The notes: generated by a model not told the origin, from the sequence alone. A stretch of DNA of 64,000 nt from Desulfuromonas sp. (GCA_002869615.1 PKUH01000110.1:125896-189895), one strand, 5' to 3'; shown: positions 7,410 to 59,583, counted from the stretch's first letter. Translations and numbers: made by a program.

Positions 7410-8294
7410 CTATTCGGCCGCTAACCTCGCTTTTCCGACACGGTACCTGGCAAACTGCGCGGCGGTGCGCCCGCAGCGCTTGCTTTTGTCGTGTGACCAG
7501 CGGACAGCCTCTTTCTCGAGTTGGCTGTCCCATTTCAATTCGATGCCATTTTCAAACGCCAGGTCCTGAATACACTGGCGGACGACCCGCAGGTAGTGCT
7601 CCTGGGAGAATGTCCGGAATGAGACCCAGAGCCCGAACCGGTCGGAGAGTGATATCTTTTCCTCAACCGCCTCGCCATGATGAATTTCATTGTTGACCAT
7701 CTTGGCGCCAAGGTTATCGATTTCATATTCGGGGAGCAGATGCCGACGGTTCGAGGTCGTGTAAATCAGAACATTCGCCGGCGCCGCGTAAACCGATCCA
7801 TCGAGTGCACTTTTGAGCATCTTGTAGGTAATTTCTCCCGGCTCGAAGGAGAGGTCATCGCAGAGCAGAACAAACCGGTAGGGGGCGTCCTTGATCTCGG
7901 CAAAAATCTCCGGCAGGTAGATCAAGTCGTTCTTGTCGACCTGGACAATGCGCAGACCTTCATCGACGTAGCGATTGAGCAGGGCCCGGACCAGCGATGA
8001 TTTCCCGGTGCCGCGACTGCCCCAGAGCAGGACGTTATTGGCCGGATAACCGGCGAGGAATTGCCGGGTGTTGTTCTCTATGATCTTTTTTTGCTGATCA
8101 ATCCCGAGCAGGTGATCGAGCTCGGTTTTCGACACTTCTTCAATCGGCTCCAGGTATCCGGAAAACGAGTGGCGGCGCCAGTTGGCGGCCGGACAGACCG
8201 CCCAGTCGATCGGTTCGACCGGCTTTGGCAGCAGCTGCTCAAACGCCGACAGAACCCGGTCAAGCTTGGCTATCATCTCCGGCGGCAGGGACAT
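7410..8294 (-). CDS. DUF815-type AAA ATPase
   Basis: Walker A GSRGTGKSS and Walker B FVLLCDDLSF. The start is set at the ATG at 8294, which overlaps the aroC stop (TGATG). The longer track ORF would overlap aroC. Confidence 0.75.
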   Translation of the reverse strand: MSLPPEMIAKLDRVLSAFEQLLPKPVEPIDWAVCPAANWRRHSFSGYLEPIEEVSKTELDHLLGIDQQKKIIENNTRQFLAGYPANNVLLWGSRGTGKSSLVRALLNRYVDEGLRIVQVDKNDLIYLPEIFAEIKDAPYRFVLLCDDLSFEPGEITYKMLKSALDGSVYAAPANVLIYTTSNRRHLLPEYEIDNLGAKMVNNEIHHGEAVEEKISLSDRFGLWVSFRTFSQEHYLRVVRQCIQDLAFENGIELKWDSQLEKEAVRWSHDKSKRCGRTAAQFARYRVGKARLAAE

Positions 8295-41723: not shown

Positions 41724-41810
41724 GCCGAAGTGGTGGAACTGGTAGACACGCCGTCTTGAGGGGGCGGTGACTTAACGGTCGTGCGAGTTCGAGTCTCGCC
41801 TTCGGCACCA
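41724..41810 (+). tRNA. tRNA-Leu (anticodon GAG)
   Basis: GCCGAAG acceptor stem, long variable arm, T-arm GAGTTCGAGTCTC and encoded CCA. The anticodon loop is TTGAGGG. The secG-tRNA-Leu(GAG) linkage mirrors secG-leuU in E. coli. Confidence 0.92.
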
Positions 41811-41856
41811 TTCAAAAACAAGTAGTTGAAATTACTAGACTTTAACTACAGAATTG

Positions 41857-41913
41857 ACAGCGCTACACAAAATGCTACACTGCGAGGTGAGCTACGTGAG
41901 CGCTGTTTTTTTA
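41857..41913 (+). terminator. hairpin plus T-run after the tRNA, within the track's 5' extension of the integrase ORF
   Basis: CAGCGCT...AGCGCTG inverted repeat followed by TTTTTTTA. It contains GCTACAC twice. Confidence 0.45.
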
Positions 41914-41931
41914 TCTAACATACCGGTCAAT

Positions 41932-43419
41932 ATGCAGTTACGTAATAAAAGATATCATTACCGTAGGCGTGTACCTGCGAATCTGGTTGAATTATTCAAC
42001 AGAAAAGAGATCACCAAATCTCTCCACACAACTGAGGGCAGAGCTGCCTCGCGTTTAAAGAACAAGTTAGACGGTGAACTTGAAGCCCTCTTTCAAGCAT
42101 GTCGTTTTAATGCACTCTCCCAAGATGAAGCCCAGCAACGCCTATCGCTTATCCTCACAGGTAAACCATTACCTGATCTACAAGAAGCAACTGAAACCAA
42201 AATCACTACTGTTAAGACTCGGAACAAACGAGCCGGCAAAAGGCTTTCTGAAGCAGTTGATGCTTACTGCAAAGAGAAAGAGCATTCCTGGACGCAGAAG
42301 ACCAAGAAAGAATACTCTGGCATCTATGATCGCATAATTAAGGGACTAGGAGACCCTTGGCTAAATGATCTTGAACGCACTGACCTTGTAATTTACAGAG
42401 ATACGTTAACTCGTGAAGGCAAGAGCATTAAGACCGTTAACAAGTATCTTGAAATCCTCTCTACAGTTCTTAAACACGCGAGCAGGTTAAAGTGGATTCA
42501 AGGTAATCCTGGTGAAGGGCTCGGATTGAAAGACAATAGACGCCCTGATGAAATGAGAAGAGCGTTTACTGTCAAAGAAATCAAAACAATCTTTGAAGCG
42601 CTGCAACGAGATAAGAAGTTCTTCTATGAACAGGGCCGCCATGAACGCTACTGGCTTCCCCTGCTCGGAATCTACACTGGTGGTCGTGTTAATGAACTCG
42701 CCCAGCTAGGGATTAAAGACATTATTATCGAGGATGGAATTCCAACCATTGAAATCACTGAAAATGGCGATGATAGTAAGAGCGTCAAGACTTCAAATTC
42801 CAGACGAAAGATTCCTATCCATAAAGACCTTCTGACACTAGGGTTTCTGGTCTATGTCAACAATATCAAAGCACAGGGGAACAATATGCTTTTCCCAGCC
42901 TTGATCAATGGTCCCAATGGATACTCCCACTATTTTGTTAAACACTTTTCAGGTAAGGCCGGGTGGTTAAGGAAACAGCTTAAAGATCTTGAGAAAGGTG
43001 TAGCCTTTCATAGCTTCAGGCATATATTTATAGACATACTTAAGAACGCTGAAATATCAGAACGGCTCATCGAGGAGATTGCAGGACATCGCCTCACCTC
43101 CATGAGCCTCGGCAGATATGGCAAGCCTTACAAAGTCGATGTGCGCCTTAAGGCAATCAACAAGATCGACTACGGCTTGATTCCCAAAGTGAAGCCGGAA
43201 GTACGATTGGTTGATATTGAAGGCACTGATGCAGTTGAAGAACATGACTATCTTGTATGCGGGAAGACCAGTGTTCGTATCATCCTTGAAGATAAAGAGC
43301 AGCCTTTAGAATTGAAACAATACAAGCGTCCAGACCTACATGGCTACAGTCCATTCCATAAAGAGATAGAGGGTTTTGTTGAAGATGAGCTAGTTGCTAA
43401 GGATAGCCTTGACGAATAA
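41932..43419 (+). CDS. int: tyrosine site-specific recombinase (island integrase)
   Basis: Start preferred at MQLRNKRYHYRRRVP (ATG at 41932). Catalytic pattern GGRVNE (R), HSFRH (H-x-x-R) and LGRYGKPY (Y). It lies immediately 3' of a tRNA at the compositional break. Confidence 0.9.
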   Translation: MQLRNKRYHYRRRVPANLVELFNRKEITKSLHTTEGRAASRLKNKLDGELEALFQACRFNALSQDEAQQRLSLILTGKPLPDLQEATETKITTVKTRNKRAGKRLSEAVDAYCKEKEHSWTQKTKKEYSGIYDRIIKGLGDPWLNDLERTDLVIYRDTLTREGKSIKTVNKYLEILSTVLKHASRLKWIQGNPGEGLGLKDNRRPDEMRRAFTVKEIKTIFEALQRDKKFFYEQGRHERYWLPLLGIYTGGRVNELAQLGIKDIIIEDGIPTIEITENGDDSKSVKTSNSRRKIPIHKDLLTLGFLVYVNNIKAQGNNMLFPALINGPNGYSHYFVKHFSGKAGWLRKQLKDLEKGVAFHSFRHIFIDILKNAEISERLIEEIAGHRLTSMSLGRYGKPYKVDVRLKAINKIDYGLIPKVKPEVRLVDIEGTDAVEEHDYLVCGKTSVRIILEDKEQPLELKQYKRPDLHGYSPFHKEIEGFVEDELVAKDSLDE

Positions 43420-43532
43420 GCACTAATGAATTAAAGTTCGCAACATTGTGAGCATGCCTCACACTTTGCCCGATTCAGCATCCCCCCTCCGCTGTTTCGG
43501 GCTTCTTTTATTGTCTGAAAGCCATACACACA

Positions 43533-46597: not shown

Positions 46598-47113
46598 TTA
46601 CCTACACATCCTATCCCGTTTACGCCTCATACTATTATCAAGTCTAGTCTTTGCCGTATGACAGTCATCACATAGAGTAGCCAGGTTAGCGATACTGTTA
46701 TCACCACCATTCATCAATGCTCTCTTGTGGTCAACTTCTAGCTTATATGTGCTCCCACATATCACGCACTGATGACCATCACGTCTTTTGATATATCGTT
46801 TAGTTTCTTGGGATACATCACGTTCATACTTGACCAGGTTGCAATCTAATGCGCCTACATTTTCGTTTGCTTCCCTGTAGTAGCTATAGATTGCTCGTTC
46901 ACGCAGTTCACCCTTGAGGGTTTTGATCTCTTTAGTTGGTTTGTTGTAACTAGGTGTGCTGCTCTGTTTCTTATAGCCAGAGTTGTGATAGTGGTACTCT
47001 CCAGTCTTTCTGTTTGTATGACCACCATTTGAATCAGTTCTGCCAGAGTGGGAATAGCTGAAGGTGCTTATTAGTATTAAGAGTAAGAGTATTGTGATTG
47101 ATTTATCAATCAT
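46598..47113 (-). CDS. secreted YHYH-motif + HNH nuclease domain protein
   Basis: 171 aa. Signal peptide, GEYHYHNSGY, then CVICGS...EVDHKRALMNGGDNSIANLATLCDDCHTAKT. Confidence 0.82.
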   Translation of the reverse strand: MIDKSITILLLLILISTFSYSHSGRTDSNGGHTNRKTGEYHYHNSGYKKQSSTPSYNKPTKEIKTLKGELRERAIYSYYREANENVGALDCNLVKYERDVSQETKRYIKRRDGHQCVICGSTYKLEVDHKRALMNGGDNSIANLATLCDDCHTAKTRLDNSMRRKRDRMCR

Positions 47114-48179: not shown

Positions 48180-49517
48180 CTATTTAATATATACGCCTAT
48201 CCAATCCTCAAATAGCACATTTCCACTATCTCTTTCAGAGCTTACCTTAGCACGCATAGTATGAAGACCACGATAAGATGTATATTCATCAAGGGTTGCT
48301 TCGTGCACTCTATCTGGCTGTCGATATTTGGGATTAGTTGTTGGAGATAAGTATTTAGTTCCAGTTATATGTTCCTGCGCACTATTCTCTTTTTCAGCTT
48401 CATTTCCATGGTTATGTTTGTAGAATTCAACTTTCAATTTACCCATACCAGTTAAAGCCGCACTTCTGACTTGGACTCTAAACTTTAAAGACAATCCTTT
48501 ATCTAAGCATCTTGATAAAGATGGGTAAGGAACCCAATCGTTTTCGGTGTCATATACTTCACATGAAAAACTGAAAGCACTATTAGATCTTAGCTTTGGG
48601 ATATCTTGTTTTCCGCTTTTTACTTCAGGAGGGAATGGCAGAAGTCTTTGGTAATGGTCACCTTTGATCAGGCGACATGAATAATTAATAGAATTACCGT
48701 TCTGATCAGTGATGTTGGGTTTTACATGCAACTCTTGTTGACCAGCAGATTCCTTAATTTCAGAATACTCTTTCGGAAAATCAATAAAGTTAATTAAGGT
48801 TTGTCCAAGCATTGTACTGTTGCTTCTAGCTTGCGACTGTAACTTTGAAGCGAAGTCTACTTGTAGTCCATGTGCAGTAACTTCAGTAGCATTTCCAAAA
48901 CCATAACATGACCATAAAATCTCATCCGTATCGCCAAAATCAAGTCCAACTCTTACTGCAAGTTCAATATCAGTACTTAATCGTTCATTCAATGATGGGA
49001 ACACATAATCTCTCATGATTAATCTGAGTGTGTTGGAGGCATTTATAGCGTTAACTATTGCATCTTCTTTGCAGATACTTTTCCCCCCAAAAAACGCCAT
49101 AAGGGCATCCCCCATCAATCTATGTGGGACTCCATCAAATGATCGAACTACATCTATAGCAGCTTGCAAAATTCTATTCTTAACGATAGCTGCCTGCTTC
49201 AACGGCAGAAGTAAATTGAGTCGAGAGCTTCTTTTAATATCTAGAAACAGAGTTGCGATATAGTGATTCTCTGTATGATCACAATTTTCTAAGTGCAGAA
49301 AGTCAGGGTGTGAACCCATCCCATTAGTATTTAACCCCTGCTTTCCAAAAAGTGGTCTAATGGCTTTTTGAAAATCATACTCTTGAGGAGTGCCTGTTGC
49401 TAATTGACTTTCGTGAGCAGTTGCCTTGAAAAGCTGCCCCTCAGACATTTGAACATTTAACGTACTGTTATTGAAAAAGAAATTACGTGTAATCTCCCCA
49501 AAGTCTACCCTGCTCAT
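48180..49517 (-). CDS. class III nucleotidyl cyclase with about 185-aa C-terminal extension (PycC-like)
   Basis: 445 aa with ATLFLDIKRSS, LMGDALMAFFGG, VRVGLDFGD and GLQVDFASKLQS. The start overlaps the upstream stop as ATGA. Confidence 0.8.
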   Translation of the reverse strand: MSRVDFGEITRNFFFNNSTLNVQMSEGQLFKATAHESQLATGTPQEYDFQKAIRPLFGKQGLNTNGMGSHPDFLHLENCDHTENHYIATLFLDIKRSSRLNLLLPLKQAAIVKNRILQAAIDVVRSFDGVPHRLMGDALMAFFGGKSICKEDAIVNAINASNTLRLIMRDYVFPSLNERLSTDIELAVRVGLDFGDTDEILWSCYGFGNATEVTAHGLQVDFASKLQSQARSNSTMLGQTLINFIDFPKEYSEIKESAGQQELHVKPNITDQNGNSINYSCRLIKGDHYQRLLPFPPEVKSGKQDIPKLRSNSAFSFSCEVYDTENDWVPYPSLSRCLDKGLSLKFRVQVRSAALTGMGKLKVEFYKHNHGNEAEKENSAQEHITGTKYLSPTTNPKYRQPDRVHEATLDEYTSYRGLHTMRAKVSSERDSGNVLFEDWIGVYIK

Positions 49518-50176
49518 TTGCTATCCTTCTTACTTGGTTCGGAAGTTGATGGTTCTCTCTTTGAGACATTAGATTTTATTTCTTCTTGTGGCATAAAAAG
49601 TGACTCAGCTTGCTTTTTTGTTTGGGATACAGCAGATTTGCGAATAAGCTGCGAATCAATAAGAAGTCCTGAGCCTAACAATAAAAGTACAAAGCCAATT
49701 GCAACTAAAGCAGATTTTACCCAGAGGATTGATCTAGAGAGGAGCTTGAATTTTCCCGAGGCAATACTCGAAAGAACAACTGATTGATGACATAAATCAC
49801 GTAGCAACTCATCTTTTGTAACAGAAGAGAACTCATCATAGTACGAATCAGGGTTTGATTCTTTTTTTGCAATATGTACAAAAGAGATAAGTGACTTGTT
49901 GCCAGGAGTGGTGTTTGGGAAAATTGCATTAAATGCAAGTCTTGCTGAGGAAGCAAGTAAGAAAAAAGTCACACTAAACACAATACAAGCAACAATTTTA
50001 TAGAGAGTTGCGCCACACACTAACCATATCTTTGGGCAGTTATATGCTAGTGCTGAAATGCTCGCTACGCTAAAGGTTAACAATAATGCAGCTTTAGTAT
50101 TAGTGCTATTGATGTAACTGTCGTTCCGCTTAATAATATCCCACTGCCAAGCAATTTTATCATCTATACTGCCCAT
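49514..50176 (-). CDS. 3-4 TM protein resembling the DUF5706 / Pycsar-effector family
   Basis: 220 aa. N-terminal WDIIKRNDSYINSTNTKAALLL leads into TM helices, with a charged tail. I saw no cNMP-binding motif. The family assignment is from memory of the family pattern only. Confidence 0.6.
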   Translation of the reverse strand: MGSIDDKIAWQWDIIKRNDSYINSTNTKAALLLTFSVASISALAYNCPKIWLVCGATLYKIVACIVFSVTFFLLASSARLAFNAIFPNTTPGNKSLISFVHIAKKESNPDSYYDEFSSVTKDELLRDLCHQSVVLSSIASGKFKLLSRSILWVKSALVAIGFVLLLLGSGLLIDSQLIRKSAVSQTKKQAESLFMPQEEIKSNVSKREPSTSEPSKKDSK

Positions 50177-53370: not shown

Positions 53371-53776
53371 TCTCCTTTTCGTTTGAGTTGATATATCGTC
53401 TGGCCAGACGTAAAAAAGACACGAGGCAACAGAGCCAAGTGTCTTGGGTGGATAGTGTTTATATAGCTATAGATGCTAAACCACAGTACGTACTGCAATT
53501 ACAGTTTGCGTTGATTTGGAGCTTAATATGGAGCTCAGAGATGTGTTCTGTTGGTGAGTTTTAAGTGCTTATATAGTGATCTATATTTCCAGAAAAAGAG
53601 ACCCCGGGGTTGTTATATAGAGCGAAGTCGTTTCTATTCTTTCTACCTGGGGTTTAGGTCCGCAGAGTCATTTTGGATTTGGATTGGGCCTTTTGAACCT
53701 TTCTATAAATCCTAAGGAGATATAAGAATTAGATATAGTAGGATTAATAATAATTCTGAGCCAACCTTCTTATAAA

Positions 53777-53802
53777 TGGTGACTTATGAGAAGCTTTTTT
53801 CT
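53777..53802 (-). repeat. island repeat core copy (sense TTCTCATAAGTCACCATTTATAAGAA)
   Basis: Imperfect inverted repeat TTCTCATAA/TTATAAGAA. Related copies lie at 56188-56213 and 57987-58012. Confidence 0.8.
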
Positions 53803-53815
53803 ATTCCGATCTCTG

Positions 53816-54832
53816 CTAGTTTGGCGTGTTAGTTTTATCCAAAATAGCCAAAATATTTTTCACATCTTCTTTATAGCCCTCATCTTCGGCAAATGATCGT
53901 ATAAATAGTCTGGCTTTATCCGTCGTAAAAAATGTGTTTATAAAGATTTCCCGCTCAGTGGTCAATTCGTAATAATCAAGCCAATGTGCAACATTCAGCA
54001 ATGAACGCATAATACCCGCCCAAACAAGATATATTCTTTCTTTAAAGAACCCATACGCCCCATTTTTATCCAATCGAAAAATATGAAAATGCTTCTCGAT
54101 CATATTTCCATAAATGGACAAAACGTCTTCACGTGAAAACCGGTCAACATCCTTGTATGAATTAACACTCCCTAGAAATTCCAAATATTCATCCATAAAA
54201 GAATAATCTATCTCCTCTGTACCTTCATACATATGATCAAAACTGACCTGATCCTCTTTGATTATAAGCATCATTAGCGTATTATATTCTTCAATCTGGC
54301 CTGTACTCTTGTAACTTCGCATCAAAACATAATTGGTACTTCCAAACCTGCACACATCTAGAATATCTTCTAAATACTTGGTTTTTTCTTCAGTTATTGC
54401 TGTTATTTGAAGATTATTTTTCTTTATGTGATTTTGTATTTTCCACCGAATCTCGTTAATCTTTGCCATTTTATCGCTCTTTGTTTTCTCGTCAGGAAAA
54501 CATGGGTTGAACTTTTCTCTCATGTGCCGAGCGATGATAGTCGAGGCTTTCTTGAATACAATCTTGTTGTCATCCGACAATGCATAGCTCTCGTCTTGAG
54601 ATTCTACGAGCAGAATACTGGCAAAGTACATATTGCGAGCAACAGGGATATTGTTCGGCTTGTAATCCCGGTTCAGTACATATTGCTTCAAGGTGTCGAA
54701 CTCACCAGCAGTCAACACCCTTACCTTGAAATTAGCCGGATTTATGATTGCAACTACATCGGAAACAACAGCGGAATACGCAGTTGTCGAGAGCATAGAA
54801 AATACTAGAAGAGAAAGAATCAGGCGTAGCAT
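53816..54832 (-). CDS. hypothetical secreted protein
   Basis: Start at the ATG at 54832 behind GGAGGGGAC, with signal peptide MLRLILSLLVFSMLSTTAYSA. Confidence 0.7.
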   Translation of the reverse strand: MLRLILSLLVFSMLSTTAYSAVVSDVVAIINPANFKVRVLTAGEFDTLKQYVLNRDYKPNNIPVARNMYFASILLVESQDESYALSDDNKIVFKKASTIIARHMREKFNPCFPDEKTKSDKMAKINEIRWKIQNHIKKNNLQITAITEEKTKYLEDILDVCRFGSTNYVLMRSYKSTGQIEEYNTLMMLIIKEDQVSFDHMYEGTEEIDYSFMDEYLEFLGSVNSYKDVDRFSREDVLSIYGNMIEKHFHIFRLDKNGAYGFFKERIYLVWAGIMRSLLNVAHWLDYYELTTEREIFINTFFTTDKARLFIRSFAEDEGYKEDVKNILAILDKTNTPN

Positions 54833-55003
54833 GTCCCCTCCAAACGTCAAATTCCTATAATGCGACATAAATAGTAGAAATCACAGTACTCGAAACAGAA
54901 AGAACGGTCAACCAGATGACCGTTCCTATTAATCCTGTTATTTCTCATGAAAGGCTGAATCGTCCTCAATTCTGGCTGTAAAGCTCCCTCTTTTAGGACC
55001 ACC

Positions 55004-56103
55004 TTAATTGAGACTTTCCGGCTGTTGATTCACAGTTAAATATTCCTTTGGTGTCAAGTTGCCGAGCGACTCATGTGGTCGCTCTTCATTGTATTCAACA
55101 ACCCAATCATCTGTGATCTGTTGCACTTCTTGAAGATGATCGAAAACATACATGTCCAGAACTTCAGTACGGTATGTCCGATTAAATCTTTCAACAAAAC
55201 CATTTTGCATGGGCCGTCCCGGTTGGGTGAACTCAAGTTTGACGCCGTTCCGATCTGCCCAGCCCGCAAGCCTCACACTCGTTAATTCAGGTCCGTTATC
55301 CACTCTTAACTTCTCTGGATAGCCTCGCCAGGTAGCAACGTTATCCAGTATCCACACAACCCTTTCAGCCGTAAGGCTGTTATCAACTTCAATGGTCAGT
55401 ACTTCACGATTATAATCATCAACCAGGTTGAAAGTCCGAAAACGTCGGCCACACCAAAGCGCATCACTCATAAAGTCAGCGCTCCAACACTGGTTAATGC
55501 TACCAGGTACGCTTAACGGTTCCGGGTTTCTTTTGGGCAGCCGCCTCTTACCTTTGCGCCGAATGTTAAGTTTTAGCCCACAGTAGACTCGATAGACCCT
55601 TTTATGATTCCATTGATGTCCACGCCGACGAATCATCTGAAACATTTTGCCAAATCCATATTGAGGCTTTTTCTCTGCCAGATCCAACAGCACCTTGATG
55701 ATCGGACCATCCTTCTCTCGGTTTGGTTGATAATAATAGACCGAGCGATTCAAGGAAACTACCTGACAGGCTGCACGGGTACTCAACCCTACAGATGCTT
55801 TGGCAAAATCAACCAGACCCCGTTTCTCCGTCGGCGTTAAAGCTTTTTTTCAATGATCTCCTTTAACGCACGATTCTCCAGGCTGGTGTCGGCAAACATC
55901 TGCTTTAAACGCCGATTTTCCTTCTCAAGTTCTTTCAGTCGCGCCAGCTCTGACACTTCCATTCCGCTGTAAAGCGATTGCCAACGGTAGAAAGTTGCTC
56001 GGGATATTCCGTGCGTACGACAGACTTCCTGATACGATTTGCCAGCTTCAGCCTCTTTTAGGATCTTGACGATTTGTGATTCACTGAACTTGGATTTACG
56101 CAT
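55004..56103 (-). CDS. IS3 transposase OrfA/OrfAB produced by programmed -1 frameshift
   Basis: OrfA (55837-56103) is an HTH protein. OrfB (55004-55786 and upstream) has the DDE pattern WSADF...VDNGPE...ERFNRTYRTE. The -1 frame after the slippery site continues as KKALTPTEKRGLVDFAKASVGLSTRAACQ... Confidence 0.9.
55844..55850 (-). promoter_or_regulatory. A AAA AAG slippery heptamer for the -1 frameshift
   Basis: Sense ATT GAA AAA AAG CTT TAA at the end of orfA. Confidence 0.8.
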
Positions 56104-56187
56104 GCGATGAGTCCTCCCTATAGCTATTAATTATGCCAAGAAGTCTCATAATTGCTGGTACTATTTTAAGGGAGGTTTACATGGCAA

Positions 56188-56213
56188 TTCCTATAAACCC
56201 TGCAATTTAAGAA
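56188..56213 (-). repeat. island repeat core, variant copy (sense TTCTTAAATTGCAGGGTTTATAGGAA)
   Basis: Aligns with the 57987-58012 copy. It is separated from its promoter-proximal half by the IS3 element. Confidence 0.75.
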
Positions 56214-56255
56214 TACTGAACGCTTCCTGGCAGTGGTGACTAATAGGAATCAACA

Positions 56256-56783
56256 TTATGGTTCATACGGATTATCTACAAGCTTCAAATGACTCCGAGT
56301 GCCATCTCCATAAATATGTTCTCTGAGCCATTTAACTCCGTCAGAAAATTTGTTTGTGTAGTTTTGTAGATTTTTGATTTGTCGATATTCGTTATAGTGC
56401 GACAAGAATTTATTGAAATATGCCTCAGCCTCATCCATGTTGTAATTCATCACAGCAGATACAGCAGCCCCATAATACATCCGAAGTGGATTATCAGCCG
56501 ATGCATATTCCTCGTGAATGCTAATTGCTTTTGTAAATGCTGACAAACTATCAGGGTAATTCTCATCTTCATACAGAAGAAACTCTCCTTCAGATCGCCA
56601 TATTGCTGAAGCATATTTTTCTGGCATCTTATTAAGCCAGTCTCTTCTTAGAGTCTTTGCCTTTTCTATTTCACCACTGCTTGTAAGCTTATCTATTTGA
56701 TAACCAACACTCATATATTTACAAAAAGGAATGCGACAGAGTAACCACCAAATGGGAAATTTAATGTATTTGATAATCTTCAA
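56256..56783 (-). CDS. hypothetical protein (helical, TPR-like)
   Basis: 175 aa. The track start is a TTG. An alternative start is the ATG at MSVGYQ. Confidence 0.55.
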   Translation of the reverse strand: MKIIKYIKFPIWWLLCRIPFCKYMSVGYQIDKLTSSGEIEKAKTLRRDWLNKMPEKYASAIWRSEGEFLLYEDENYPDSLSAFTKAISIHEEYASADNPLRMYYGAAVSAVMNYNMDEAEAYFNKFLSHYNEYRQIKNLQNYTNKFSDGVKWLREHIYGDGTRSHLKLVDNPYEP

Positions 56784-56887
56784 AAAACTGTCCTAAATAT
56801 GCCGCAATTTAAGAAGCTCAAAACCATCTCGCCAGTAGTGACTTATGAGAAACTTTATATCACGGTGTCTATGAAATCAGGGTCGAT

Positions 56888-57841
56888 TCATTCCTCGACC
56901 TTGATCCCCTCTGGATCACCAACCACATCAATTATCTTTTCAACAATTCCTTGGTATGGTTCACCTAACCCATATGTTTCTTTCAATGTTCTGATAGATT
57001 TTTTTGATGTAAACATCTTTTTTGCAAAAGTCCTTGCAAGCGCCTCCTGCCCACTCTCAGTAAGCACATGGAAGAAGACAATTGAGGAATGTAGTGCAGG
57101 CCCAAAAATATCGAATGAATGAAGTTCACGTGGTTCTTGAATCAAGATATCTAAATCAAATGCCCAATAGTGTTTAATAGTAAGGTAACTATACAAATCA
57201 ATAAGCTGCTTAATACTCAAATTATATTGATCATCGAAGACATTATTAAAAAAATGATTATATGATCCTCTTAATTGCCGCCCTTCAGTTCCTCGATAAT
57301 GCCTATAGAAAACATCATCTTCCGCTAAATAATACAGAAATGTCTCGTTGTCTTTATATGCTTCGCTCACAGCTCTGCGACGTTCAAGTAACTCTTTCCT
57401 CGCTTGGCGTGATTTATCATCAAATGGCTCGTACCTTGAGTAAGCTGTCTCTTCAATGTTCATATGGCTGTTAATATAATCAATCTTCTTCTGCCATAGA
57501 TCCTGCGCTAATTCATATGTGCTTAATTCTATCTCGCTCTTTATTTTATATTGATAGTCCTTATGCCCAATGGCGTACTTGCGAGTATAGTGGTCAATCA
57601 ATATATCCGAGAGGTAGAGGGCGTCGATTAACAGTTCCCTGTCCTTAACAGCTTCGGGGTCAAAATCCGTGAATAGTTCCTCAAGGAATATGTGTTCTTC
57701 AGAGGTTAGCGAATAGTCTGTATCACTGAAGATGTTTAGCTTCAGCTTGTAAATTTCATCTTGATTTAGGGATTGGAGAGAATCTGCTACGGAGTAGCTA
57801 CTAAGTGTGGCAAGTAGGAGTGCTATTATAATGCGAACCAT
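56888..57841 (-). CDS. hypothetical secreted protein
   Basis: 317 aa with signal peptide MVRIIIALLLATLSSYSVA and the same GGAGGGGACATG start context as the gene at 54832. Confidence 0.7.
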   Translation of the reverse strand: MVRIIIALLLATLSSYSVADSLQSLNQDEIYKLKLNIFSDTDYSLTSEEHIFLEELFTDFDPEAVKDRELLIDALYLSDILIDHYTRKYAIGHKDYQYKIKSEIELSTYELAQDLWQKKIDYINSHMNIEETAYSRYEPFDDKSRQARKELLERRRAVSEAYKDNETFLYYLAEDDVFYRHYRGTEGRQLRGSYNHFFNNVFDDQYNLSIKQLIDLYSYLTIKHYWAFDLDILIQEPRELHSFDIFGPALHSSIVFFHVLTESGQEALARTFAKKMFTSKKSIRTLKETYGLGEPYQGIVEKIIDVVGDPEGIKVEE

Positions 57842-57986
57842 GTCCCCTCCGAGCTACAGATTCCTACAAACATACATAAATAATAAAATCCAATCTACTT
57901 GAAATATATCGAACGGTCAAACAATTGACTTTCTTATTTGTCCTACTATTTCTCATCCAAGGTTCAAAACCAGCCAGATTTCCCGT

Positions 57987-58012
57987 TTCTTATAAACCCT
58001 GACTTATGAGAA
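57987..58012 (-). repeat. island repeat core copy (sense TTCTCATAAGTCAGGGTTTATAAGAA)
   Basis: It heads a roughly 175-nt leader homologous to the one upstream of 54832. Confidence 0.8.
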
Positions 58013-58074: not shown

Positions 58075-59583
58075 TTATTGGCTCACCCATCTAAAGTCAC
58101 CACGATGCGAAGAGTCCACTATGTACTTGTGATCATCATCAGTAACCTTTGGATCAATCACAGTAAGAAAGTTGGAATGCATCATGGGATTCCTCTGCGG
58201 GATCAGAGCTAATAGTTTGTTCCCGCTAGGAGACCAAGCGTGGTAGCGACCACTGAGATCTCGATATCCAACTTGTTCCTTTCCAGTCTTCATGTTCCGA
58301 CGTACAATGTCATAGCCTCTATCTTCATTCTCTCGAATGAATGAAAGCTCATTTGTCGCTGTAACTAGGCGAGGGTCACGTCCCTCTGTAATTCTGTTGG
58401 TTGAACTTGTGTTTAAGTCGTAGAGATGAAGGTCTTTTGGGAACCGGCCTTTCTCAGCATAGGCTAGGCCCATACCAGTACCCGTTGTACTCCTGAAGTC
58501 ATATAAGGACGTGTCTCGTAAAGTTGTATAGATGAGTCCTTGTGAATCGCTAGTCCAGACAAGACCATCCTTCAGCACCTTCATCTGTGCTTCTTGTAGT
58601 AGCTCTCCTGTCTCGGTACTGAATATTTTAAGCCTACAGGCACTACCTATCATGAAATGGCTCACCTCATCCCTAGGAGCCTCGACTTCATGCTGCCACT
58701 CAAGAGCTGCAACCTTCTTAAGGTCTGGTGATATACGTATGTAGCGAGCATCGGTATCAATTGTTGTGATCAGCTTTACGTCTGGAATACTGAAGACAGA
58801 CTTCTGCTTATCTTCCCAGTTATCAGTCCTGATATCGCAAACAAAGACATTGCCTTTTGCATCCCAAGATCTCTCTATTCCGAAGCCGCCAGGGTCATAG
58901 CTTTCTGTCGTACCGTCCCCTACATTGAATCGCTTCAATATCTCTCTGGATCGATTCTCACTTTTCACATTATCTGTATAGAAGATATAACCTGACTCAC
59001 CTTCAAGTAGGGATTGCTCAGTCCACTTCTGCGCGGTTTTATTGTCTAGTGACCCAGAGTAGCTTAAGTAAGCAATAGCTAAAGCAAACTGCGCCACAAA
59101 CACAAATATATAGCTAATAAAGTTAAAGTATAAAGCATACGAAGATGTTCTCTTCCATGTCAGACCAGTACTTCTGTAGAACCACTTGAGCAAGGGCCAT
59201 TCAGCTATCACTGACACGAAGAACATCGTGATGAAGAGATCCATTGCGCCAGGAAAATCTATCTGCTGACTTTGATTGTAGGCCCATAGAATTATGGAGC
59301 CAACAGCACTAGATGCAACATTGAAAAGAGTTACACGGAATACAGTTGTCGTGAACTTTACTTCTTTGATCCACCTTCGAATCAAGAAAGTTTCAATGAC
59401 GATTACTAGGAGGAGAAGGATTGTTGCGGGAACGAATGTTCCTGACATGAAGACGTTAGATAGAGGGACAATTGCGTTAGCTTGACAGATAGATGGCACC
59501 ACTAGCGTTAATACGCAAGCAAACACGCCATACAAACCCCTTTTAATTGCATTCTCATAACAGTACATAAGTCTTACTTGCAT
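58075..59583 (-). CDS. polytopic membrane N-domain fused to a TolB-like beta-propeller
   Basis: 502 aa. About 5 TM helices in the first 180 aa, then WD40/PD40-like repeats (SPDLKKVAAL, WTSDSQGLIYT, AWSPSGNKLLAL). Confidence 0.7.
   Translation of the reverse strand: MQVRLMYCYENAIKRGLYGVFACVLTLVVPSICQANAIVPLSNVFMSGTFVPATILLLLVIVIETFLIRRWIKEVKFTTTVFRVTLFNVASSAVGSIILWAYNQSQQIDFPGAMDLFITMFFVSVIAEWPLLKWFYRSTGLTWKRTSSYALYFNFISYIFVFVAQFALAIAYLSYSGSLDNKTAQKWTEQSLLEGESGYIFYTDNVKSENRSREILKRFNVGDGTTESYDPGGFGIERSWDAKGNVFVCDIRTDNWEDKQKSVFSIPDVKLITTIDTDARYIRISPDLKKVAALEWQHEVEAPRDEVSHFMIGSACRLKIFSTETGELLQEAQMKVLKDGLVWTSDSQGLIYTTLRDTSLYDFRSTTGTGMGLAYAEKGRFPKDLHLYDLNTSSTNRITEGRDPRLVTATNELSFIRENEDRGYDIVRRNMKTGKEQVGYRDLSGRYHAWSPSGNKLLALIPQRNPMMHSNFLTVIDPKVTDDDHKYIVDSSHRGDFRWVSQ

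Follow-up and report, generated by a model that had tools for sequence, protein, structure and literature searches.

Gene-cassette arrays are known to be built by tyrosine recombinases, as in integrons and Xer modules, whereas small serine recombinases are known as invertases and resolvases. Among the latter, the Din invertases (Hin, Gin, Cin, Pin and Min) act on 26-bp sites (hix, gix, cix, pix and mix) composed of two 12-bp halves around a 2-bp core, a layout written here as 12-2-12. Among the published examples gixL reads TTCCTGTAAACC GA GGTTTTGGATAA, hixL reads TTCTTGAAAACC AA GGTTTTTGATAA and cixL opens with TTCTCTTAAACC AA, and the mix and nix sites have similarly lopsided halves (PMC3241671, Table 3). 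Here, I describe an array of 26-nt elements in a 64,000-nt stretch (the window) of a Desulfuromonas sp. metagenome-assembled genome, and suggest, with a probability of roughly 0.65, that they are crossover sites of a Hin/Gin-like small serine recombinase and border swappable gene cassettes, two of which are headed by a portable terminator-plus-promoter module of about 180 nt. An earlier note on this DNA had taken the elements for operators of an island-specific regulon and had named a recombination substrate as the fallback; it is the fallback that is favoured, by the match to Din sites, by the flanking of a recombinase gene with such sites in related contigs and by a break in homology at a site centre.

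Sites in the window and in related loci

Six 26-nt sites occur in the window, each on the minus strand, each exactly intergenic and each parsing as 12-2-12. Their halves fall into types, namely alpha (TTCTCATAAGTC) and beta (TTCTTAAATTGC) on the left, gamma (GGTTTATAGGAA) and delta (GACTGGTGAGAA) on the right, delta being near the reverse complement of alpha. On the gene-sense strand the sites are:

57987-58012, minus strand: site A, TTCTCATAAGTC AG GGTTTATAAGAA (alpha-AG-gamma)
56826-56851, minus strand: site B2, TTCTCATAAGTC AC TACTGGCGAGAT (alpha-AC-delta)
56790-56815, minus strand: site B1, TTCTTAAATTGC GG CATATTTAGGAC (beta with a degenerate gamma)
56790-56851, minus strand: composite B, 62 nt, made of B2, a 10-nt linker and B1
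56224-56249, minus strand: site C2, TTCCTATTAGTC AC CACTGCCAGGAA (alpha-AC-delta)
56188-56213, minus strand: site C1, TTCTTAAATTGC AG GGTTTATAGGAA (beta-AG-gamma)
56188-56249, minus strand: composite C, 62 nt, made of C2, a 10-nt linker and C1
53767-53792, minus strand: site D, TTCTCATAAGTC AC CATTTATAAGAA (alpha-AC-gamma')

The window thus runs from site A through a module, the gene for a 317-amino-acid (aa) protein, B2, linker, B1, the 175-aa gene, C2, linker, C1, an insertion sequence (IS), a second module and the 338-aa gene to site D. Site A, which heads module 1, lies 63 nt past the stop codon of a 502-aa gene, and site D 24 nt past that of the 338-aa gene; the two composites (26 + 10 + 26 nt each) tightly flank the 175-aa gene. 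Sites are found at the 3' ends of genes (D, B2 and C2) as often as at their 5' ends. The 26-mer, with at most three mismatches allowed, gave 2 matches against 0.00 expected, a degenerate palindrome gave 4 against 0.09, and 9 of the window's 13 TWATRRGAA half-sites are clustered within 4.5 kb. The copy that had been reported at 57987-58012 and the variant at 56188-56213 are confirmed; the copy placed at 53777-53802 is in fact 10 nt away, at 53767-53792, what had been read as half-sites at 56839-56851 and 56804-56815 are the inner parts of the full sites at 56826-56851 and 56790-56815, and a sixth site, at 56224-56249, had been overlooked.

The likeness to Din sites speaks for recombination. In plus-strand orientation C1 is TTCCTATAAACC CT GCAATTTAAGAA, and A is TTCTTATAAACC CT GACTTATGAGAA; the C1 half TTCCTATAAACC agrees with the gix half TTCCTGTAAACC at 11 of 12 positions, and the A half TTCTTATAAACC with hixL/cixL at 10 of 12. 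A 12-2-12 matrix built from published Din sites alone (PMC3241671, Table 3) ranks C1 first (17.7), A second (16.0), D fourth and B1 seventh in the 64-kb window, where the best unrelated position scores 7.8, and two or more sites scoring at least 16.0 arose in 1 of 1000 shuffles. The consensus TTC....AAACC is fitted by the gamma half, and by alpha, beta and delta only at the outer GAA and a few further positions.

A consistent grammar emerges from related loci (designated L below), all of them known from metagenome assemblies. A matrix of the family gives 16 bits or more to 35 sites in 15 non-redundant loci, and all parse as 12-2-12. Each left type is found with each right type (beta-gamma 12, alpha-delta 9, alpha-gamma 7, beta-delta 3), the switch of type falls at the central dinucleotide, and the core tracks the left half: beta goes with AG in 16 of 17 sites, and of 17 alpha sites 12 have AC and 5 have AG. 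Hybrids of this kind, with discrete halves meeting at the centre, would be the residue of repeated crossover at the core. Every multi-site locus keeps its sites on one strand (the window 6/6, L019 10/10, L026 4/4, L018 3/3, L024 2/2). Cassette junctions take the form alpha-AC-delta, 10 nt, beta-AG-gamma; composites and triples hold an exact 36-nt period, the triples, found in two loci, adding a beta-AG-delta unit. Sites also occur without a module, as do D, B2 and C2 in the window and the solo sites in L005, L007, L012 and L013.

Two other explanations of the 26-mer itself were discarded. As an intrinsic terminator it has neither a GC-rich stem nor a T-run, and attC-like single-strand folding does not serve as the main explanation, the hairpins being weak and not consistently above shuffles; the plus strand of site A alone stands out (z = -4.7).

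A small serine recombinase gene flanked by sites

A serine recombinase gene adjoins a partial module in L014, L019, L020 and L021, and lies adjacent to a site in L014, L019, L021, L026 and L028. In L014, from Desulfuromonas sp. BM302, the gene, for a small serine recombinase, diverges from the partial module; the catalytic part of its product has the Gin invertase as nearest relative among solved structures. A full-length relative of 191 aa (P0004) is about equally close to the gamma-delta resolvase (2e-28) and the Gin invertase (1e-26). This clade is very abundant in metagenomes, often labelled "Pin-like DNA invertase" and often found on contigs of about 1 kb. Both P0004 and a copy of the window's contig are present in JGI sample 3300007102; P0004 occurs, too, in the European Nucleotide Archive assemblies ERZ794997/98, the window copy being in ERZ794999, an adjacent accession. 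As a side observation, the L014 copy appears frameshifted at about codon 130 (positions 7900-8000 of that locus) relative to the intact P0004 of L019 and L020 (L019 9100-9282), through either an assembly error or decay to a pseudogene.

With a matrix made only of sites known before the recombinase loci were fetched, five of six independent recombinase contexts have, within 200-nt flanks, a site above the 99th percentile of the background, always on the strand opposite to the recombinase gene. The earlier note had proposed a search for a co-occurring transcription factor, and what came up flanked by sites in these five contexts is a serine recombinase rather than a regulator. No recognisable site was found in the flanks of a homologue with 80% identity from Geoalkalibacter halelectricus. 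The L019 array extends for more than 11 kb from a tRNA-Ala gene and comprises ten sites and a weaker site-like sequence, all on one strand; the recombinase gene lies inside it, its start following the weaker site-like sequence by 58 nt and its stop preceding a site by 85 nt. The L019 array begins about 190 nt downstream of the tRNA-Ala(GGC) gene, and in L024 the distance between a tRNA-Ala(GGC) gene and the nearest site is about 1.7 kb.

A segment of about 750 nt, reaching from 71 nt before the start codon of the recombinase gene to 677 nt after it, is 100% identical between L019 and L021. Their homology ends precisely at the CT/AG core of the upstream site, where L019 reads TTCTTAAAAGAC|CT|ACATTACAATAA and L021 reads TTCCTATAAACC|CT|ACATTACAATAA. 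The L021 contig ends at the centre of the downstream site, and the L027 contig inside a site-like sequence; comparison of the pairs L024/L025 and L026/L027 gave no second breakpoint.

The module, the cassette genes and the island

The leaders of the 317-aa and 338-aa genes had been described as homologous, and formal alignment bears this out: once the IS is removed, the local score is 84 against 17.5 +/- 2.3 for shuffled sequences, over some 130 nt up to the ATG. The block GGAGGGGACATG, reported as shared, is indeed identical in both. As for the proposed joining of 54976 to 56182, the interruption by an IS holds and the coordinates are a few bases off, the element spanning 54973-56186. Of the two -35/-10 pairs put forward, TTGACC-17 nt-TAGATT is called by a promoter scan, while TTGACC-17 nt-TACTGT is present but too weak for a call. 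The promoter and terminator of the module are predictions from sequence. Its parts in the window are:

57842-57986, minus strand: module 1, interior of the 317-aa leader
57957-57986: module 1, spacer of 30 nt
57931-57956: module 1, site-like repeat 3, ATGAGAAATAGT AG GACAAATAAGAA
57915-57920: module 1, predicted -35 TTGACC, within a decayed hairpin
57892-57897: module 1, predicted -10 TAGATT
57861-57883: module 1, site-like repeat 2
57842-57850: module 1, ribosome-binding site GGAGGGGAC
54833-54972, minus strand: module 2, interior of the 338-aa leader, with a shortened spacer
54923-54948: module 2, site-like repeat 3
54900-54927: module 2, intact terminator-like hairpin with T-run
54906-54911 and 54883-54888: module 2, TTGACC and TACTGT
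54852-54874: module 2, site-like repeat 2
54833-54841: module 2, ribosome-binding site

The module measures about 180 nt, with a sharp 5' edge at the TTCT of its site and a 3' limit at the ribosome-binding site. In gene-sense order it comprises site 1, the spacer, a second 12-AG-12 repeat (ATGAGAAATAGT AG GATTTATAGGAA; repeat 3 in the list), a hairpin GAACGGTCA-N5-TGACCGTTC followed by a T-run, and, in its 3' part, a third, gamma-like repeat (TTATTTATGTAGGTTTATAAGAA) and the ribosome-binding-site-like GGAGRGG. TTGACC (-35) sits in the descending arm of the hairpin, with TAnnnT 17-18 nt downstream in 5 of 8 copies. The gap between site 1 and repeat 3 is 30 nt in 11 of 13 copies, the sequence of the spacer being variable. 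The terminator hairpin is the sole consensus structure; it is conserved in sequence and without covariation (1 compensatory pair in 10), and a comparison with Rfam returned nothing relevant at E <= 1.

A scan of metagenomes for the site gave ten loci, of which L004 and L009 hold a homologous leader, and a scan of genomes for the leader pattern gave the Desulfuromonadales contigs L014, L016, L017 and L018 and one chance match; an alignment profile finds ten full or partial module copies in those loci, and further ones in loci fetched later. The genes behind the module are unrelated to one another: a TetR regulator with its own promoter in L009, lipoprotein and membrane-protein genes in L018, and a 152-aa secreted protein gene in L019. 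The idea of a portable cassette with a plausible promoter thus stands, in the form of a module of about 180 nt that heads unrelated genes in other Desulfuromonadales contigs. Before convergent genes there are variant modules that keep site 1, the spacer and repeat 3 and have an unrelated terminator, without the promoter half.

Several side observations concern module copies. An inverted copy of repeat 3 occurs beside site D:

53728-53753, plus strand: inverted repeat-3 copy, ATTAGATATAGT AG GATTAATAATAA

It is identical at 25 of 26 positions to the repeat 3 beside the L021 recombinase. The stretch 53700-53766, on the 3' side of site D, is a rearranged, degenerate module in which the inverted repeat 3 starts after 13 nt and is followed by the right half of repeat 3 in direct orientation; the inverted repeat 3 is the only inverted element of the array. 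The gene that directly precedes the first module of L018 (4100-4170) has an apparent in-frame TGA in a CxxU-like motif and looks by eye like an Rdx/SelW-type selenoprotein. In L009 (703-1060), some 330 nt separate the module from a tRNA 3'-end fragment and a P4-type integrase gene, and a 21-nt direct repeat, GCTACCCC[C/T]GGTGCTACCTTT, stands on either side of the tRNA fragment.

The genes of the array (502, 317, 175 and 338 aa) and the IS3-family element are all on the minus strand:

59583-58075, minus strand: 502-aa gene
56888-57841, minus strand: 317-aa gene, with signal peptide and no family match
56256-56783, minus strand: 175-aa gene, with a weak TPR match (152 aa if a later start is used)
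53816-54832, minus strand: 338-aa gene, an orphan with signal peptide
54973-56186, minus strand: IS3-family element, with imperfect terminal repeats and ATTC on both flanks
55837-56103 and 55004-55786: IS3 orfA and orfB

The open reading frame (ORF) given as 350 aa probably has its true start at the ATG at 54832, which makes it 338 aa. The proteins of 317 and 338 aa had been considered unrelated, and a comparison shows no significant similarity (best BLASTP segment 16 aa, E = 0.039). A homologue search with the 338-aa protein returned nothing besides itself, and the 317-aa protein has one homologue (35% identity), in an unrelated context with no site nearby; for the cargo proteins, Pfam, NCBIfam and PADLOC gave only the weak TPR and one marginal match. 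The 175-aa gene has no module, B1 and C2 being its tight borders. The annotated start of the 502-aa ORF is doubtful; its first 20 or so codons (59540-59583) hold TTATGT...TTATGAGAAT, which recalls the 3' part of the module, and the signal peptide comes after it; a third leader at this gene (TTATGT...TTATGAGAAT, about 59552) was considered and dropped, the module profile giving no match. The single homologue of the 317-aa protein, of 369 aa, resides in locus L001 in a low-GC insert of a GC-rich contig, flanked by an 83%-identical duplication (303-441 and 1979-2102) of the 5' end of a GTPase-like gene, which looks rsgA-like from its translation; ahead of the homologue gene, a short TTCTCATATAGGTTT motif recalls the 3' end of the module.

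The IS3-family element abuts the outer edge of the C1 gamma half and parts C1 from its module. In L004 (1323-1385), the equivalent site has a lone terminal repeat of a related IS directly at its other edge. Insertion may be directed to C1-type sites, and IS elements that target dif or repetitive extragenic palindromic (REP) sequences are known; the relatives of this IS in L012 and L026, however, have no site next to them.

The array is placed within a defence island at a tRNA-Leu gene. Past the tRNA-Leu and integrase genes the G+C content falls from about 54% to some 40%, and it does not recover before the window ends. The island encodes a Pycsar-like cyclase-effector pair, an AGS_C protein, an HNH nuclease, RadC and an ArdC-like protein:

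41724-41810: tRNA-Leu gene
41854-43419: tyrosine integrase gene
46598-47113: HNH nuclease
48180-49517: AGS_C sensor-domain protein, 445 aa, adjoining the Pycsar-like pair
49514-50176: PycTM effector of the Pycsar-like pair, 220 aa
50200-51033: nucleotide cyclase of the Pycsar-like pair, 277 aa

The DNA of the array region has no close relatives in E. coli genomes, a single 53-nt match (1% of the query) among plasmids, and no matches in scans of viral contigs. A 53-nt similarity between the window (43460-43512) and L014/L019 was set aside as merely alike terminator hairpins.

Proposed mechanism, rival readings and known systems

On the crossover-site reading, the 26-nt elements would be bound by dimers of a recombinase whose gene lies elsewhere in the genome, and the strands would be cut at the 2-bp core between the half-sites. 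Exchange would take place between sites of the same core, that is, within an AG class (A, C1) and an AC class (B2, C2, D), and would excise, insert or swap cassettes; the two-site composites (alpha-AC-delta, 10 nt, beta-AG-gamma) would be the junctions of neighbouring cassettes. The module, which follows beta-gamma or alpha-gamma sites, could have two roles: it might act as a res-like accessory region, with its 12-AG-12 repeat at a fixed 30 nt, and as an insulating expression unit in which the terminator blocks read-through while a sigma-70-type promoter and ribosome-binding site drive the incoming gene. The recombinase could also repress the module promoter, by analogy with Tn3 resolvase at res. 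Insertion of the IS3 element between C1 and its module has probably frozen this junction. The likely events would be movements of same-core units (A...C1; B2...C2...D) or a double exchange, because most cassettes are flanked by one AG and one AC site, which are not expected to recombine.

The last point is also one of several that weigh against the proposal: with flanks of different core, simple excision of most cassettes by their own two sites is not expected. A single Din-matrix score of at least 16.0 turned up in 50 of 1000 shuffles (5%), and one half per site is Din-like, the other halves and the cores (AG/AC vs AA/GA) being different. Din invertases act on inverted sites and those found here are all direct, so that I infer the reaction type. 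No serine recombinase gene was found in the 64-kb window with tblastn or Pfam; the recombinase loci are other contigs of the same samples or of a sister metagenome-assembled genome, linked to the array by family and not by adjacency, and the breakpoint evidence is drawn from metagenome assemblies. For the window array itself no empty site, circle junction or presence/absence polymorphism of cassettes was found, three further assemblies being identical to the window.

The regulon of the earlier note, in which the palindromes would bind a transcription factor co-regulating the secreted-protein genes of the island, draws on the palindromic nature and clustering of the sites (9 of 13 TWATRRGAA half-sites in 4.5 kb), on the two copies that precede leaders with a plausible promoter and on the further half-site-like repeats around that promoter. 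Resolvases repress promoters inside res, so a regulatory side-function is possible. As the main function it is unlikely and goes unsupported, given that D, B2 and C2 sit at gene 3' ends, that discrete half types form hybrids in all four combinations and composites with a 36-nt period, that the L019/L021 homology ends at a site centre, that the gene flanked by sites in five of six contexts is a recombinase, that the sites match those of Din invertases, and that no candidate regulator gene lies beside the window array. An RNA leader (a riboswitch, an attenuator or a small RNA ending at the terminator hairpin) would account for the conserved hairpin and T-run about 75 nt upstream of the start codon, and a small variable hairpin may, by eye, exist in the 30-nt spacer. 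It deserves very little credence: Rfam is silent at E <= 1, the terminator is the one consensus structure (1 compensatory pair in 10), no convincing promoter lies upstream of the putative RNA, and variant modules exchange the hairpin for an unrelated terminator.

Sites of a tyrosine recombinase, Xer/dif- or integron-like, would have 9-bp arms and an 8-bp spacer (ATAA-N8-TTAT), and the cassettes would be mobile in the manner of dif modules or integron cassettes. A resemblance to cer does exist in the inner arm ends ATAA/TTAT and in the 8-bp spacing, and the left arm resembles the Bacillus dif arm. At least some insertion sequences are on record as targeting dif sites, and an IS abuts a site both in the window and in L004; tyrosine integrases occur in the window, at a distance of 10 kb, and close to the L009 module, and the position of the break is also compatible with crossover inside an 8-bp spacer. 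Such sites are nonetheless improbable, for it is a Din 12-2-12 matrix that singles them out and a serine, not a tyrosine, recombinase gene that they consistently flank, the integrases being ordinary tRNA-island integrases at variable distance; moreover, dif is a 28-bp site of 11-6-11 layout, with a 6-bp centre, and pdif sites alternate in orientation, whereas here ATAA and TTAT are 8 nt apart and one orientation prevails, and the GTTRRRY/RYYYAAC signature is absent from the sites. More improbable still is a miniature transposable element, the module being a Correia- or ERIC-like non-autonomous element that transposes between genes and carries promoter and terminator by chance, and the 26-mers its terminal repeats or decayed remnants. 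The sharp 5' boundary at TTCT and the presence of several copies per genome, in several genomes, before unrelated genes would fit, and Correia elements likewise provide promoters and terminators. Yet none of the module copies read has a target-site duplication, many sites (D, B2, C2 and the solo sites of L005, L007, L012 and L013) have no module, the copies are arrayed in one orientation rather than scattered and have no correlated transposase, and the module ends are direct, not inverted, repeats of the gamma half.

Taken as crossover sites of a small serine recombinase, the elements resemble several known systems in part. With Din invertases they share the 26-bp, 12-2-12 layout, one near-identical half (TTCCTATAAACC vs gix TTCCTGTAAACC) beside a less conserved one, as in mix, and, in the related loci, a recombinase gene for about 190 aa with a site 60-90 bp away. 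Unlike Din sites, they are direct and enclose no invertible segment, have AG/AC instead of AA/GA cores, border whole genes rather than alternative gene ends, come many per locus in composites of 36-nt period and, in the window, lack a recombinase gene; being direct, they cannot belong to the classical inversion systems. The res sites of Tn3/gamma-delta and Sin are similar in their direct orientation, in having several dimer-sized sub-sites at fixed spacing, in lying just upstream of the recombinase gene (L019, L021) with a promoter inside the element, and in that crossover-site hybrids are known for Tn3-family transposons. Site 1, 30 nt and repeat 3 amount here to 82 bp, or 118 bp with the upstream sub-site; Tn3 res has 114 bp and Sin res 86 bp. 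The crossover site is 26 bp (12-2-12) and not 28 bp, many copies border cargo genes in a chromosomal island, and neither Tn3-type transposase nor plasmid genes were found near any array examined. Because geometry and chromosomal cassette context are unlike those of Tn3 res, a working akin to a hybrid of resolvase and integron is suggested, without membership of either family.

Staphylococcal cassette chromosome (SCC) elements and other tandem serine-recombinase islands also have tandem cassettes that depend on a serine recombinase, with short direct-repeat sites in between; SCC differs in its large recombinases (CcrAB/CcrC), its one attB in rlmH and elements of 20-60 kb, against a small recombinase and units of one to few genes here. 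The pdif modules of Acinetobacter are small gene modules bordered by short recombinase sites, shuffled between contexts and targeted by an IS family, but pdif sites are 28-bp XerC/XerD sites of alternating orientation served by the tyrosine recombinases of the host. A cassette-array layout for the present enzyme class was not found described in the literature searched, the coverage of which is incomplete. To sum up, since direct Din-like sites border unrelated genes, carry hybrid halves and flank a recombinase gene, the arrays suggest that the building and reshuffling of cassette arrays is also within the range of small serine recombinases. There would then be a new route of exchange for secreted and envelope proteins among sediment metal and sulfur reducers, the two incompatible cores would be natural heterospecific sites, the principle on which engineered cassette exchange relies, and the module would be a compact, portable terminator-promoter insulator; the site grammar and search pattern make the idea directly testable in existing metagenome reads.

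Integrons are a parallel in layout: unrelated, mostly orphan genes in one orientation are split by imperfect palindromes (26, 62 or 98 nt), with hybrid sites at the junctions and IS elements perhaps drawn to the sites. Unlike in integrons, there is no IntI and no attC consensus, the sole integrase in the window being that of the tRNA-Leu island, 10 kb off; the associated enzyme is a serine recombinase, and some cassettes carry their own promoter and terminator. A full serine-recombinase counterpart of the integron can be sketched tentatively, and with more doubt than confidence. It would consist of a platform with a recombinase of about 190 aa flanked by attachment sites, and of cassettes of one to few genes in one orientation, often near a tRNA gene, joined by 62-nt junctions with two mutually incompatible cores (AC/AG) and in many cases provided with a terminator-promoter module of their own; sediment Desulfuromonadales would widely possess it, and the proteins shuffled would be secreted and envelope ones, also into other mobile islands, such as the defence island at tRNA-Leu.

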